A DNA stretch of 64,000 bases from Candidatus Hodarchaeota archaeon (GTDB lineage Archaea; Asgardarchaeota; Heimdallarchaeia; Hodarchaeales; Hodarchaeaceae), in assembly GCA_016840035.1 (NCBI GenBank), contig JAEOTC010000121.1, positions 33,962-97,961 on the forward strand, in the 5' to 3' direction. This document shows, piece by piece, positions 4,123 through 8,005 of this stretch. Position numbers and translations under genes: made by a program. How positions within the stretch are numbered: the first letter of the stretch is position 1; the number at the start of each line of letters is the position of its first letter. Below the pieces are notes generated by a model that saw only the letters and a list, made by a program, of their open reading frames with translations, searched no databases and had not been told where the DNA came from.

Positions 4123-5178
4123 TTAGGAGTTAAATTGAGCATTTATTTGTTTTATCAAAGGCCTAAACCATGCAAGAAGAGTTAAATGACCACCAGGGTA
4201 ACGATATAGCTGTTTGTCCAGCAATCTTGCAAGTTTATAAACACGATTGAAGGGAACGATCCTATCATATAAACCTCCAATGATCACAGTATTCTCGTTG
4301 GTTGTAAACGGATAGAAAGATTTTATATTAGTTGGATATAAGATTTTATAACCAGAGCTTAGACCTTGCTCCTTATACTGTTGAATATAATTATTTGCGA
4401 TTGGTACAATCTTGGTTTTTGAAGCAAGACCAAAAAGAAAAGGACTAGCTAAGGCTGCTATACAATCAATACCTGAAAGAACTTGAGAAGAAAGGGCAAC
4501 AAGGTGACCCCCAAGAGATACACCGAAAAGTATCACACGATCGTACTCCTTCTTTAGATACTTGATTAGGAATTGAATCTCGATAATAGATTGATTAAAT
4601 GCCTCAAACATCCTAATAGGGTTACCATTTATAAAATATGCACCAGAAAAGGGAGAATCATAAGGAACGCGATGATGATGGTATGGTAATTCTAAAGCAA
4701 AAATATCACTTTTGAATTGATTGAAAATGAGACGAAAGTAAAATTGTTCATGAAATATAAAATGCGATTCTGCATAACCATGAATGAAAAGAAAAGCTGT
4801 TTTCAACGGTTTAGATTTCTTTTTTCGATATTTATGTATTATAATTTGTTTAAGGGGATCGAATTTAGAGTCATTAAATACTTCATTGGATATTGGTTGA
4901 TAAGGAGTATATACGGATCCAATCGATTCATGAAATAACCCTCGTTTAACTGTATCTTTCCAAAGGATCTCTCTATCATTTGAGTTCTTTAGAGTGAATA
5001 TCTTACGTGGATTCTTCTTGTAAAAGGGTAAATATTCTTGGATTAAGCTATCATTAAGCAGAAAATCTTCTAAATATCCATTATTTCGGTATTGAAAATA
5101 GGATATGACCGGATATTCAAGTAAATCAGATGGAACAATCTGGAATGTCTCAAAAAGTTGTTTAATGATTGCACTCAA
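4123..5178 (-). CDS. alpha/beta-hydrolase fold protein
   Basis: Contains FIHGY..., a nucleophile elbow GVSLGG (GxSxG), and downstream His/Asp candidates. Confidence 0.7.
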   Translation of the reverse strand: MSAIIKQLFETFQIVPSDLLEYPVISYFQYRNNGYLEDFLLNDSLIQEYLPFYKKNPRKIFTLKNSNDREILWKDTVKRGLFHESIGSVYTPYQPISNEVFNDSKFDPLKQIIIHKYRKKKSKPLKTAFLFIHGYAESHFIFHEQFYFRLIFNQFKSDIFALELPYHHHRVPYDSPFSGAYFINGNPIRMFEAFNQSIIEIQFLIKYLKKEYDRVILFGVSLGGHLVALSSQVLSGIDCIAALASPFLFGLASKTKIVPIANNYIQQYKEQGLSSGYKILYPTNIKSFYPFTTNENTVIIGGLYDRIVPFNRVYKLARLLDKQLYRYPGGHLTLLAWFRPLIKQINAQFNS

Positions 5179-5278
5179 GAAAATCTGTCCCTGATTGTAT
5201 TTAACAATCTTAGAAATTCTTTATTTAAAAACTACTATATTTGAATCTCATTCAACTTGACAGGACGTTCTGAATCAC

Positions 5279-6142
5279 CTACATTCTCTTTTTGAGAAAA
5301 GTGCCGTTCCGATACTCTTCAAATGCTATTCGTAGCTCTTCTTCTGTATTCATAACAATGGGGCCAGCCCATGCAATAGGTTCATTTATCGGCTTTCCTG
5401 AAATTAATAGGAAGCGTACTCCAGTATCCTCATTTGTTGTAACTTGTACAGTTTCTCCTTCTCTTTTGAATATAACTAAATTGTCTTGCTTCGTATATTC
5501 CTGACTATTAGGAGTAAATCGTCCTTTTCCCTCGAAAATATAAGCAAAAACCGTGTATCCATCATTAACTCCATGTTTAAAGGTTACTCCAGGGGGAATT
5601 TCAACATCTAGATAATGAGGTTCTGTAATGATCTCTTTTACTGGGCCTTCGGTTTCTTTATAGTGGCCAGCAAGTACACGTACTTGAGTACCATCTTCTT
5701 CATTTATTACAGGAATGCTAGATGCGTGGATATCTTGGTATCGCGGATCGATTAGTTTTGATACTCTTGGGAGGTTTACCCATAACTGAAATCCTGATAG
5801 CTTTCCTTTTGTTTGTTGGGGCATCTCTTCATGAATAATACCGCTTCCAGCAGTCATCCATTGAATATCACCTTCACTTAAAGCTCCTGAGTTTCCAAGA
5901 CTGTCTTTATGCATGATTAAACCTTCTCGCATGTAAGTAACAGTCTCAATTCCGCGATGAGGATGCCAAGGAAACCCCGCTATGTAATCATTGGGATTGT
6001 CAGATCCAAATGCATCAAGAAGTAAGAAAGGATCGAGTAATTTCGTCTCTTGATGGCTGAAAACCCTTTTTAATTTAACACCCGCCCCATCCATGGTAGG
6101 AATACTTGATTGAATTTTATCAATAGTTCGAAATCTAATCAT
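5279..6142 (-). CDS. pirin-family bicupin protein
   Basis: FPWHPHRGIETVTYMREG ... QWMTAGSGIIHEE matches the pirin N-terminal cupin metal site (HxH...H...E). Confidence 0.85.
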   Translation of the reverse strand: MIRFRTIDKIQSSIPTMDGAGVKLKRVFSHQETKLLDPFLLLDAFGSDNPNDYIAGFPWHPHRGIETVTYMREGLIMHKDSLGNSGALSEGDIQWMTAGSGIIHEEMPQQTKGKLSGFQLWVNLPRVSKLIDPRYQDIHASSIPVINEEDGTQVRVLAGHYKETEGPVKEIITEPHYLDVEIPPGVTFKHGVNDGYTVFAYIFEGKGRFTPNSQEYTKQDNLVIFKREGETVQVTTNEDTGVRFLLISGKPINEPIAWAGPIVMNTEEELRIAFEEYRNGTFLKKRM

Positions 6143-6345
6143 AAGAAGAAGAGATTCTTGGATTCATTTAAGCTTCTCTCTGATAAAATCACAATTTAGG
6201 ATTTCAAAAAATCGAAAGAAGTAAGTTATTCGAACCTAGATACCCCTAGAAGATGGATAGTAATACAAATTCATGGATTGAATTAACTGCTCTCTAAAAT
6301 CTCAGAGAGACAATAAATGAATAAATAAAATGTGAGGGGGAGTAT

Positions 6346-6618
6346 TCACATCTTAGATGCTGCTAATCTAATATCATCACTCTTTACAGTTTTACGACCA
6401 GAGTTATTGCAAATTTCAACAGCATACTTTGACAGTTTTAAGCTGTGTTCGGTCAGAACTGTATTAAGTGCGTCTACTGCATCAGCGGAAACTCGGAATG
6501 CACCTGCATCACGAATTAATCTTTCAACTCTAGCACTAGCAAATCCACCAGCTCCAGAGCTTGATTTCTTTGCGGGTGCGGCTTTTTTGACTTTTTTAGC
6601 GACTTTCTTCTTAGCCAT
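6346..6618 (-). CDS. archaeal histone-fold protein with lysine-rich N-terminal tail
   Basis: Core RVERLIRDAGAFRVSADAVDALNTVL...AVEICNNSGRKTVKSDDIRLA aligns to HMfB-type archaeal histones (DAGAERVS...GRKTIKAEDI.LA). It is preceded by a 28-aa tail MAKKKVAKKVKKAAPAKKSSSGAGG. ATG at 6618; the ORF track extends to a TTG at 6627. Confidence 0.9.
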   Translation of the reverse strand: MAKKKVAKKVKKAAPAKKSSSGAGGFASARVERLIRDAGAFRVSADAVDALNTVLTEHSLKLSKYAVEICNNSGRKTVKSDDIRLAASKM

Positions 6619-6689
6619 ATTTTTCAATTCCTTTTCTCTTAAGGTAAGTTTAGTAACTTGTCGTGAGTTCTACATAAGGAACTATTCCC

Positions 6690-6697
6690 TTTAAAAA
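6690..6697 (-). promoter_or_regulatory. putative TATA box upstream of histone gene
   Basis: TTTTTAAA read on the minus strand, about 70 nt upstream of the histone ATG. AT-rich context, so weak. Confidence 0.25.
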
Positions 6698-7072
6698 CTT
6701 ATTCCATTATATCCGGTGCATTCTAGAAAGCTAACCTCAGACAACAATCATCTGAGGGAACATGAACAATTAGAGATATAGCTAGAGGAGGGAAGCTAGA
6801 ACTTTCAACTATCTCGGAAAATATGAGAAACCTGATAAAGGTACTACTTGATTATGACCAAAGAGATTCTCATATTCAGATATAGATTTTCATGAATAAG
6901 GACAATCACTCTTAGCCAATTTAAAAGAAATATAAAAATATTGATTCTCAACAGATTATATGAAGTTTAAAGCGCTATGCTTGTCTAATTTTGAATAAAT
7001 TTGCCATTTAAAAAAAAGAATTATGAAATAGGACAAGGAGTTAAAATAAATTTCAAAATAAGAAAATGGTAA

Positions 7073-8005
7073 ATGCTCTGCGAAAATATGAAATACTCCT
7101 CTGAACAAGATGGTGAGTGGAGATTATATCCAGTGAAAACGAAATTCTATACAGATCTAAATGTATTTTATCAACATGTTATCTCATTTCTGCTTAACCA
7201 TGAAGCGGAGAATAATCTCCTTTTAGGAATCCTAAATACTTTGAAAAAAGATATTGCTACTTATAGTAAGGAAAATCCCCCTATTTTTATTTCAGTAGAA
7301 TCGGAAGATATGATTGAATTAGTTTCTATAAGGACTCCACCTTATAATCAACTTATATCATATACCAAGGATTTGAAAATGATAGATAGATTGGTAGAAG
7401 AGCTCAACAGGAAGAAAATGAAAGTTCCGGGAGTTTTAGGTTTTAAGGAAGGTGCCTTAAGATTTGCAGAGAAGTGGTGTGAACTACATAGTCTGGAATT
7501 TAAGCTGGAAGTTAATGAAAGGATCTATAGGCTAGAACAGGTGAATCCAGAAACACTCGGAACAAATCAAGTTGAACTAGCAACAGATGAAGATGAGACT
7601 ATTATTTTAGAAATGTCTAAGGGTTTTTTCTTTGAAGCCCTTCCTGAAGAGGCGATTGAAGTGACTGATCTTGAAGCTTCGCAGCAGAGGATGAAGAAAT
7701 CGTTACAAGATAAAATGATTTTCGTTTTAAAGGTTGGAGGGCAAATTGTATCTATGGTCAAACAGGGTCATCATACACCAAATGGCCAGATAATAAGCGC
7801 AGTTTATACACCTCCTCAAAAGCGTAGGAAAGGATATGCAACTGAACTCGTAGCTAAAGTGAGTCAAAAAACTCTCTCTAAAGGGAAAAAATATTGTTTT
7901 CTATTTACTGATCTCTCCAATCCTACATCAAATAAGATTTATCAAACAATAGGATATCGTCCGGTCACTGATATGGATTTATATCGTTTTCATGAAAGGA
8001 AATAA
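7073..8005 (+). CDS. GNAT-family N-acetyltransferase with N-terminal extension
   Basis: C-terminal region ...ISAVYTPPQKRRKGYATELVAKV... carries the acetyl-CoA binding motif (R/Q-x-x-G-x-A/G) of the GNAT fold. Confidence 0.6.
   Translation: MLCENMKYSSEQDGEWRLYPVKTKFYTDLNVFYQHVISFLLNHEAENNLLLGILNTLKKDIATYSKENPPIFISVESEDMIELVSIRTPPYNQLISYTKDLKMIDRLVEELNRKKMKVPGVLGFKEGALRFAEKWCELHSLEFKLEVNERIYRLEQVNPETLGTNQVELATDEDETIILEMSKGFFFEALPEEAIEVTDLEASQQRMKKSLQDKMIFVLKVGGQIVSMVKQGHHTPNGQIISAVYTPPQKRRKGYATELVAKVSQKTLSKGKKYCFLFTDLSNPTSNKIYQTIGYRPVTDMDLYRFHERK

Follow-up and report, generated by a model that had tools for sequence, protein, structure and literature searches.

Does the small ORF (open reading frame) on the minus strand at 6346..6618 of this archaeal DNA encode a histone with a eukaryote-like, lysine-rich N-terminal tail, and what would such a tail do? 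The stretch analysed, hereafter the window, comprises 64,000 nucleotides of Candidatus Hodarchaeota archaeon (GenBank assembly GCA_016840035.1, contig JAEOTC010000121.1), with a GC content of uniformly ~35%. The ORF begins with ATG, contains 90 codons and ends with a TGA stop at 6346-6348; its translation is MAKKKVAKKVKKAAPAKKSSSGAGG-FASARVERLIRDAGAFRVSADAVDALNTVLTEHSLKLSKYAVEICNNSGRKTVKSDDIRLAASKM. Judged from sequence and predicted structure, the product is very probably an archaeal nucleosomal histone belonging to the long-tailed Asgard type and an orthologue-level relative of HMpB.1 and of LC_3 HA. The gene and its parts are as follows.

6346..6618, minus strand: coding sequence of the tailed histone, 90 amino acids (ORF list, PF00808, PF00125, NCBIfam, 60 homologues at E<=1e-7)
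6349..6543, minus strand: histone fold, residues 26-90 (AlphaFold2 model, Foldseek/phmmer, alignment to HHoB)
6544..6564, minus strand: neutral Ser/Gly linker SSSGAGG, residues 19-25, joining the basic tail to alpha-1 (translation)
6565..6615, minus strand: basic tail segment AKKKVAKKVKKAAPAKK, residues 2-18, with 9 Lys, 6 Ala, 1 Pro and 2 Val (translation and low model confidence)

A preliminary description of this DNA had recognised an HMf-type histone fold in the C-terminal part, and this was borne out by profile, model and structure comparison. The Pfam profile PF00808 (CBFD_NFYB_HMF) matched residues 28-86 with E=1.8e-13 and 51 bits versus a cut-off of 21.4, PF00125 gave a weaker match above its own cut-off (31.5 bits), and the NCBIfam model archaea_histone (NF043032) scored 76.3 bits versus a cut-off of 50. 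An AlphaFold2 model built on 54 homologues revealed the short-long-short arrangement of helices alpha-1 (28-37), alpha-2 (45-73) and alpha-3 (80-89) with a predicted local distance difference test score (pLDDT) of >90. In Foldseek and phmmer comparisons, the closest PDB matches were the HHoB nucleosome and hypernucleosome (9qv5/9qv6) with 65% identity and a root-mean-square deviation (rmsd) of 0.7-0.9 Å; HPhA and HMfA/B ranked after HHoB, the rmsd across HHoB, HMfA/B and HPhA being 0.6-0.9 Å. Pfam matches were limited to histone-fold families, and the fold was the sole structured part of the model. We conclude that the gene is predicted, with high confidence in the fold at residues 26-90, to encode an archaeal histone. 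Neither a six-frame profile search nor tblastn revealed a second histone gene in the window. A 120-amino-acid, GTG-initiated ORF at 6332-6694 on the plus strand was treated as a shadow ORF because it lies entirely antisense to the histone coding sequence and its leader.

A total of 60 homologues was retrieved at E<=1e-7, and those carrying a taxon label were all from Asgard metagenome-assembled genomes (MAGs), in agreement with the earlier remark that tailed variants occur in Asgard lineages. The labels were Hodarchaeales/Hodarchaeota, Heimdallarchaeota, Promethearchaeota, Hermodarchaeota and Thorarchaeota; PWI46740.1 of Heimdallarchaeota B3_Heim fell into the same 90% cluster as the window histone. 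All 44 genome loci with related histones were likewise from Asgard MAGs, and the neighbouring genes of the window were syntenic with Hodarchaeota MAGs. Full ORFs were re-derived at these 44 loci, which separated the histones into three classes: long-tailed (MAKKK..., 13-31 residues), short-tailed (M[AVT]KKPKRKAGF, 7-11 residues) and untailed (MAGF...). The window histone is of the long-tailed class.

Within that class, the window histone was 56% identical to HMpB.1 (BEU34764.1; E=4e-27) across the fold and the end of the tail, versus only 32% to HLoB.2, and on these identities it would group with the Hodarchaeales branch of long-tailed Asgard histones. The class has been described as having a disordered extension of ~16-32 amino acids with tail Lys >30% and an isoelectric point (pI) of ~10.5 (Cho et al. 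2026, 10.64898/2026.07.02.735847); the window histone shows these traits, with a 24-residue disordered extension, more than 30% Lys in the tail and a high pI. The gene hence belongs, at the level of an orthologue, to the long-tailed histone class published for Hodarchaeales and is of an already known kind. The Promethearchaeota protein P0037 (MAKKKTPAKK...) was considered as HLoB.2 on account of an identical N-terminal peptide; this was rejected, as the window histone is 62% identical to P0037 and 32% to HLoB.2, so that the fold of this family is unlike that of HLoB.2. Assignment to H2A, H2B, H3 or H4 found no support, with eukaryotic nucleosome chains at 24-28% identity in Foldseek and no H3/H4 tail motif.

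Between Met1 and F26 there are 24 residues, nine of them Lys (37.5%) and none Arg, Asp or Glu. The pI is 10.9 for the tail and 10.3 for the whole protein, and residues 4-22 had a pLDDT <50, corresponding to predicted disorder on an otherwise confident fold. At the window Lys frequency of 5.4%, the binomial p of at least nine Lys in residues 2-18 (17 positions) is ~6e-8; the recurrence of such tails in homologues, given below, is more telling. These values agree with the preliminary description, in which the extension was called basic and of low complexity. Its length had been given as 28 residues; the extension itself stands, while measurement against untailed paralogues (HHoB M1-A2-G3-N4-F5 aligns with A23-G24-G25-F26) gives ~21-25, about 24 residues. 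Similarly, the likeness to the AKP repeats of H1 holds for composition only: the winged-helix globular (H15) domain of linker histone H1 is absent from the Pfam matches, and the protein is no member of that family. Tails of the M-[AP]-K-K-K type were present in 42 homologues, with a median of 22 residues and 37% Lys, and the K/A/P-rich composition of the MAKKK segment was kept in all 42. The MAGs with such tailed homologues are of Hodarchaeales, Heimdall and Loki type. At the position of the linker, homologues carry other S/G/T-rich sequences (ASSDVSG, SSGGTG, VASGSAG).

A codon scan of the reading frame showed that codon 1 is not followed by any ATG, GTG or TTG before codon 90. An internal start removing the tail was therefore rejected, and the histone fold cannot be made without the tail; the earlier remark on the lack of an internal ATG holds and extends to GTG and TTG. 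In a DNA alignment with five relatives, the start ATG and the ~20 nt preceding it were invariant, and differences in tail length among close relatives were in-frame indels of 3n nucleotides. An upstream TTG start at 6627 (MKNMAKKK...) was rejected because this codon reads CTG in all five relatives, leaving the ATG at 6618 as the conserved start. On the reading frame as it stands, the tail would necessarily be translated.

Residues were mapped by alignment, with an offset of +21 to HHoB and +23 to HMfB. The DNA-contact residues R33, R42 and R75-K76-T77 (HMfB R10, R19 and R52-K53-T54) are kept, R42, R75, K76 and T77 being invariant in 54 homologues. Likewise kept are the dimer-dimer residues Y65, E68, I69, R75, D82, L85 and K89. 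The interface His (HMfB H49, HHoB H51) is replaced by Asn72, and the canonical HMfB tetramerisation set L46/H49/D59/L62 is, hence, only partly present, with I69, D82 and L85 retained. Four charged stacking positions of HHoB are neutralised (K29 to A50, E32 to T53, K39 to L60 and R50 to N71). The HMfB stacking pairs K30-E61, E34-R65 and R48-D14 correspond to T53-R84, E57-S88 and N71-D37, and the HHoB stacking set K29, E32, D36, R50 and K63 to A50, T53, E57, N71 and R84, so that most charge pairs are lost. As read from this mapping, Asn72 would lower the confidence in stable hypernucleosomes and leave the histone identity intact.

Handshake dimers would each bind ~30 bp and oligomerise along DNA. 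The residue mapping suggests that the window histone would bind and bend DNA normally and oligomerise less tightly, and that looser, "open" or short assemblies would be favoured over tightly stacked hypernucleosomes because of Asn72 and the three or four neutralised stacking positions. Looser stacking would also make space for the tails. The basic segment, carried on the Ser/Gly linker, would be able to emerge between DNA gyres, where its nine lysines could bind DNA in cis or in trans. These lysines would be accessible to methylation and acetylation that tune DNA binding. The histone may also co-assemble into mixed fibres with untailed paralogues from other parts of the genome.

Related histones have been described before. 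Eukaryote-like, Lys-rich N-terminal tails were reported for the Heimdall LC_3 histones by Henneman et al. 2018 (PMC6136690), who predicted a less stable, "floppy" hypernucleosome for HA (OLS22332.1) carrying H49N, with the tails exiting through the DNA gyres; Grau-Bové et al. 2022 found Lys-rich tails to be frequent on Loki and Heimdall histones. By its published description, LC_3 HA shares with the window histone the Lys-rich tail, the H49N exchange and the scarcity of stacking contacts, and differs from it by R17-R19, which lie where the tail exits and were modelled to pass through the minor groove, whereas the window tail is devoid of Arg. HMpB.1 of the cultured Hodarchaeales archaeon Ca. 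Margulisarchaeum peptidiphilum HC1 (93 versus 90 amino acids) likewise has a Lys-rich disordered tail and Asn in place of the interface His, and both proteins contain the AGAFRVSA and KYAVEI motifs. In contrast, HMpB.1 has an Arg-rich linker (KKRRTSRSRG versus SSSGAGG), ARNSNRRT instead of CNNSGRKT and a tail that cannot be aligned with that of the window histone, and abundance and post-translational modifications (PTMs) were measured for HMpB.1 only. It is among the most abundant proteins, and its tail peptides were detected by mass spectrometry (MS) with Lys methylation (Cho et al. 2026).

HHoB of Hodarchaeales LC_3 (9qv5/9qv6/9qv7) was solved in closed and open assemblies by Ranawat et al. 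2025, who listed its interface residues and found normal DNA binding of the K29A/E32A/D36A stacking mutant in the electrophoretic mobility shift assay. The DNA-contact motif SGRKTVK is identical in HHoB and the window histone, and the equivalents of Y44/E47/I48/R54/D61/L64/K68 are kept; unlike the window histone, HHoB is tail-less and has His51 (versus Asn72) and charged K29, E32, K39 and R50 (versus A50, T53, L60 and N71). The HLoB.1-3 histones of Ca. Lokiarchaeum ossiferum B35 resemble the window histone in their MAKKK..., K/A/P-rich tail style, tail length and pI but, with 32% fold identity (HLoB.2), belong to a different histone-fold subfamily; the resemblance of the tails is either ancient or a result of convergence. 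HLoB co-localises with DNA; in vitro, LoHAT2 acetylated its tails and LoSIR2b deacetylated them (Cho et al. 2026). With eukaryotic H3/H4 tails, the window tail has in common that it is a disordered, basic, Lys-rich extension N-terminal to the histone fold; it shows no tail sequence homology, and is shorter (24 versus 32-64 amino acids) and richer in Lys. Unlike eukaryotic core histones, the window histone is presumably homodimer-capable and no part of an H2A/H2B/H3/H4 octamer.

Several points weigh against this reading of the window histone. It is known here from its sequence and predicted structure, and the prediction of open over closed assemblies comes from residue mapping. As the tails of HMpB.1 and the window histone are not alignable residue by residue, modification sites are non-transferable between them. 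The Arg cluster at the tail exit of LC_3 HA and HMpB.1 is absent from the window tail, so the path of the tail through the DNA may differ, and AT-rich codon bias could account for part of the preference of Lys over Arg.

As regards the role of the tail, it could be a constitutive electrostatic arm for DNA binding and compaction, similar to the C-terminal tail of HupB or to H1 tails, that functions here without regulatory PTMs. We regard this as somewhat unlikely, although it accounts for several features. K/A/P repeats, the absence of acidic residues and a pI of 10.9 would suit a non-specific DNA clamp; sequence and length drift among relatives while composition is kept, as fits a bulk-charge function; and reader domains were not found in Asgard genomes (Cho et al. 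2026). Against it, the same study reported methyl and acetyl marks on Asgard tails, the tail lysines of HMpB.1 and HLoB being methylated or acetylated and modified peptides being enriched over unmodified ones, and it demonstrated that Asgard GNAT and SIR2 enzymes, namely the small GNAT LoHAT2 and sirtuins, act on tails in vitro. The suggestion in the preliminary description that the tail may be a target of lysine modification is in line, by analogy, with the MS data on the 56%-identical HMpB.1. A further point against a purely electrostatic arm is that genes of long-tailed histones are recurrently linked to GNAT genes, as detailed below.

At 15 loci, an orthologous long-tailed histone has an Eis-family GNAT gene (~420 amino acids; Acetyltransf_9, Acetyltransf_17 and SCP2_2) no more than two genes away. 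The MAG labels at these loci are Hod-, Heimdall-, Prometh- and Hermodarchaeota, and three arrangements occur.

L007:3151-4407, L013:1025-2281, L015:3365-4636: Eis-family gene upstream of the histone gene, same strand, within two genes
L017:4617-5888, L026:1410-2696, L032:4482-5750: upstream, same strand, within two genes
L038:4440-5711, L041:4475-5746, L044:4547-5818: upstream, same strand, within two genes
L057:3001-4269, L058:410-1678, L060:3001-4254, L061:38-1036: upstream, same strand, metagenome sequences
L131:4417-5685, minus strand: convergent with the histone gene
L132:4001-5251: one small-GTPase gene between the Eis-family gene and the histone gene

In the nine genome loci with an upstream Eis-family gene, the two genes are directly adjacent in eight, and a small zinc-ribbon ORF intervenes in L013. 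The four metagenome cases are all of the metagenome orthologues (at least 49% identity) with enough downstream sequence. The profile of this GNAT matched Eis-family structures from end to end, and Eis is also the NCBI name. A metallophosphoesterase gene upstream and an ABC ATPase gene nearby are often conserved at these loci. A GNAT gene lay within two genes of the histone at 14 of 15 long-tailed loci versus 3 of 26 short-tailed or untailed control loci, with a Fisher p=2.6e-7 that is overstated, the loci being phylogenetically related. Among the 84 nearest neighbours at the 26 control loci, no Eis-family gene was detected by BLAST clustering and in the 25 listed of 69 Pfam families; three GNATs were present, all of one ~178-amino-acid family. 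Of the more distant Eis homologues (<=45% identity), 0 of ~35 had a histone nearby, and no Eis-like gene was found in the 64-kb window by six-frame profile search or tblastn.

The control GNATs constitute a third family (Acetyltransf_1/_7) located within two genes of three non-long-tailed histones in three MAGs (L019:3174-3704, minus strand; L046:3961-4500; L048:551-1099). Other observations concern the histones themselves. A variant at L048:1778-2047 and L052:5935-6120 carries a 25-residue N-terminal extension that is first acidic and then Arg-rich (MEEYTETIPEPRIARRKAVRRKFGF...), a tail chemistry differing from that of the Lys-rich class. Untailed MAGF/MVGF-type histones at ~6000 in seven loci (L016, L029, L030, L031, L037, L045 and L049) share a conserved neighbourhood, in which genes for a flavin reductase and an N6/N4 DNA methylase precede the histone gene and one for a response-regulator receiver protein follows it. 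A different long-tailed histone (MPKKKAPKKKPASKKESKPKASKEQVGF...) is encoded at L132:6596-6874, downstream of the Eis-like gene and an Arf/Ras-type GTPase gene. L132 is a Hodarchaeales contig of the same Joint Genome Institute sample series as the window-clade loci L001-L003, and for this reason the window organism may have a second tailed paralogue in which the Eis linkage is kept.

A functional analogy for the Eis-histone pair is offered by mycobacteria, where the nucleoid protein HupB/MtHU is acetylated by the Eis-family GNAT Eis, which weakens DNA binding of MtHU. The acetylated HupB lysines sit in a Lys/Ala/Pro-rich tail. The parallel is one of analogy only, since HU has no histone fold and its tail is C-terminal. 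LoHAT1 and LoHAT2 were considered as the neighbouring GNAT types and rejected, both being small RimI/RimL-like GNATs. The preprint of Cho et al. 2026 and its supplements make no mention of Eis, SCP2_2-type GNATs, synteny, PF13527, PF17668 or PF08445.

The GNAT gene adjacent to the window histone is of another type.

7088..8005, plus strand: tandem-GNAT acetyltransferase, 305 amino acids from ATG 7088, alternative ATG 7073 (Pfam, AlphaFold2)

It is transcribed divergently from the histone gene with a gap of 454-469 bp, as had been noted before (~450 bp, other strand). Pfam matches to FR47, Acetyltransf_10/_1/_9 and GNAT_acetyltran cover residues ~188-300 in the C-terminal part, and the AlphaFold2 model (pLDDT 92) shows two GNAT-like lobes corresponding to a tandem-GNAT fold. 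The closest folds were 3iwg (an uncharacterised Colwellia GNAT), VipF, glycine N-acyltransferase (GLYAT) and MshD. The Eis-family and window-type GNATs are distinct families, because DZ2M.341 carries an Eis-histone pair (L032) and a window-type GNAT elsewhere (L053).

Whether this enzyme is a dedicated tail acetyltransferase, co-regulated with the histone through a shared conserved intergenic region, appears doubtful. The divergent arrangement is present in all eight close-clade loci, which have the order GNAT-histone-pirin and histone folds 94-97% identical, and a block of ~180 nt within the intergenic region is unusually well conserved. In addition, orthologous tailed histones elsewhere are linked to the different, Eis-family GNAT, so that a GNAT beside this histone type recurs, and one of the structural relatives is VipF, an acetyltransferase effector of the GNAT family. 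VipF acetylates a protein substrate. Adjacency within the close clade, however, carries little information because the whole surrounding block (ABC transporter-GNAT-histone-pirin-hydrolase-acyltransferase-MFS) is syntenic. Beyond it, none of six contexts of window-type GNAT homologues (46-54% identity) in other Asgard genomes has a histone beside the GNAT gene, and adjacency as a wider pattern was rejected. The family is also large (1213 matches, mostly from Asgards) and probably multi-copy per genome, the structural relatives are mostly small-molecule acyltransferases (GLYAT, MshD, glucosamine N-acetyltransferase), and GNATs are very common in Asgards, with 63 candidates in one Loki genome (Cho et al. 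2026). The caution of the preliminary description that the adjacency may be coincidental was, hence, apt.

That long-tailed histone genes may be physically coupled to their own acetyltransferase genes, mostly of the Eis family and with the tandem-GNAT swapped in within the window clade, is a tentative proposal that we consider improbable as a whole; the window would then show a writer-substrate module with an exchanged writer. A functional role is considerably more likely for the Eis-histone pairing elsewhere than for the link to the window GNAT. Two further neighbourhoods were observed. One of the six tandem-GNAT homologues lacking a histone neighbour (L056:4001-4864) is convergent with an Alba gene (4978-5268, minus strand) on a Lokiarchaeota-labelled contig, as a single case; Alba is an archaeal chromatin protein regulated by lysine acetylation in Sulfolobus. 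In the window clade, the gene directly following that of the tailed histone encodes a pirin (5279-6142, minus strand, in the window); Heimdall SZ_4_bin2.246 (L004/L014 at ~9893) also has a pirin gene, no more than ~4.6 kb from its orthologous histone, which suggests remnant synteny.

It is very improbable that the window protein is an NF-YB/HAP3-type histone-fold transcription factor subunit and no chromatin histone. One homologue is named "NFYB/HAP3 family transcription factor subunit" by NCBI, and NF-YB structures are among the Foldseek matches; these NF-Y matches are at 23-25% identity, however, versus 65% to the nucleosome-forming HHoB, the NCBIfam archaeal histone score is well above its cut-off, the DNA-wrapping and dimer-dimer residues are kept, and the HMpB class occurs at chromatin-scale abundance (Cho et al. 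2026). AAA/AAG-rich low-complexity DNA can arise in AT-rich intergenic sequence, but the reading of the tail as an annotation artefact, with a downstream translation start or a low-complexity non-coding leader, is effectively refuted and of negligible probability, given the lack of in-frame starts, the invariant ATG and its upstream context, the tail-length changes in multiples of 3 nt, the M-[AP]-K-K-K start kept in more than 40 homologues and the MS detection of HMpB.1 and HLoB.2 tail peptides (Cho et al. 2026).

The DNA flanking the histone gene, which we continue to read as that of a long-tailed archaeal histone, contains the following features.

6310..6331, minus strand: T-rich tract TTTTATTTATTCATTTATTGT (coding strand), starting ~14 nt past the stop codon (sequence)
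6619..6686, minus strand: putative 5' leader with the conserved blocks ATAGTTCCTTATGTAGAACTCACG.CAAGTTAC ... AGAAAAGGAAT.TGAAAAA.ATG (alignment)
6687..6700, minus strand: promoter-like box AAGTTTTTAAAGGG, composed of TATA-like TTTTTAAA preceded by a purine-rich flank, located 72-79 nt before the ATG
6700..6880, no strand assigned: conserved non-coding block of ~180 nt in the divergent GNAT-histone intergenic region (alignment)

The AAGTTTTTAAAGGG box was invariant in all six aligned relatives and, by its consensus, looks like an archaeal B recognition element (BRE)/TATA. The T-rich tract is a plausible archaeal terminator; a bacterial-type scan, which is uninformative for an archaeon, gave no terminator-like site at 6310..6331. 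Its single terminator-like hairpin, at 6757-6735, is upstream of the histone promoter. The block at 6700-6880 was ~80% identical across six relatives and includes GGTACTACTTGATTATGACCAAA and the hairpin at 6735-6757, whereas the flanking intergenic DNA was poorly conserved. No Rfam match was obtained in the block at E<=1, and RNAalifold yielded -6.5 kcal/mol with a positive covariation term and one compensatory pair, revealing no convincing covarying structure. A non-coding RNA in this block is, hence, unsupported; on its conservation, the block may be shared regulatory DNA.

For the family, the window gene leaves the picture drawn by Henneman et al. 2018, Grau-Bové et al. 2022, Ranawat et al. 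2025 and Cho et al. 2026 unchanged. It adds a clean Hodarchaeales example with Asn at the interface His and a Ser/Gly linker in a position that is Arg-rich in the named relatives, the replacement of the Arg cluster appearing as a small variation at the sequence level. The gene-neighbourhood signal could matter more than the histone itself, and the Eis-histone pairing may be new. If a neighbouring Eis or tandem GNAT acetylates the tails, genomic linkage rather than in-silico docking would provide specific candidate "writers", and the linkage is directly testable in existing Loki and Hod cultures. If true, the Eis-histone pair would represent an unreported, genomically encoded chromatin-modification unit predating eukaryotes.

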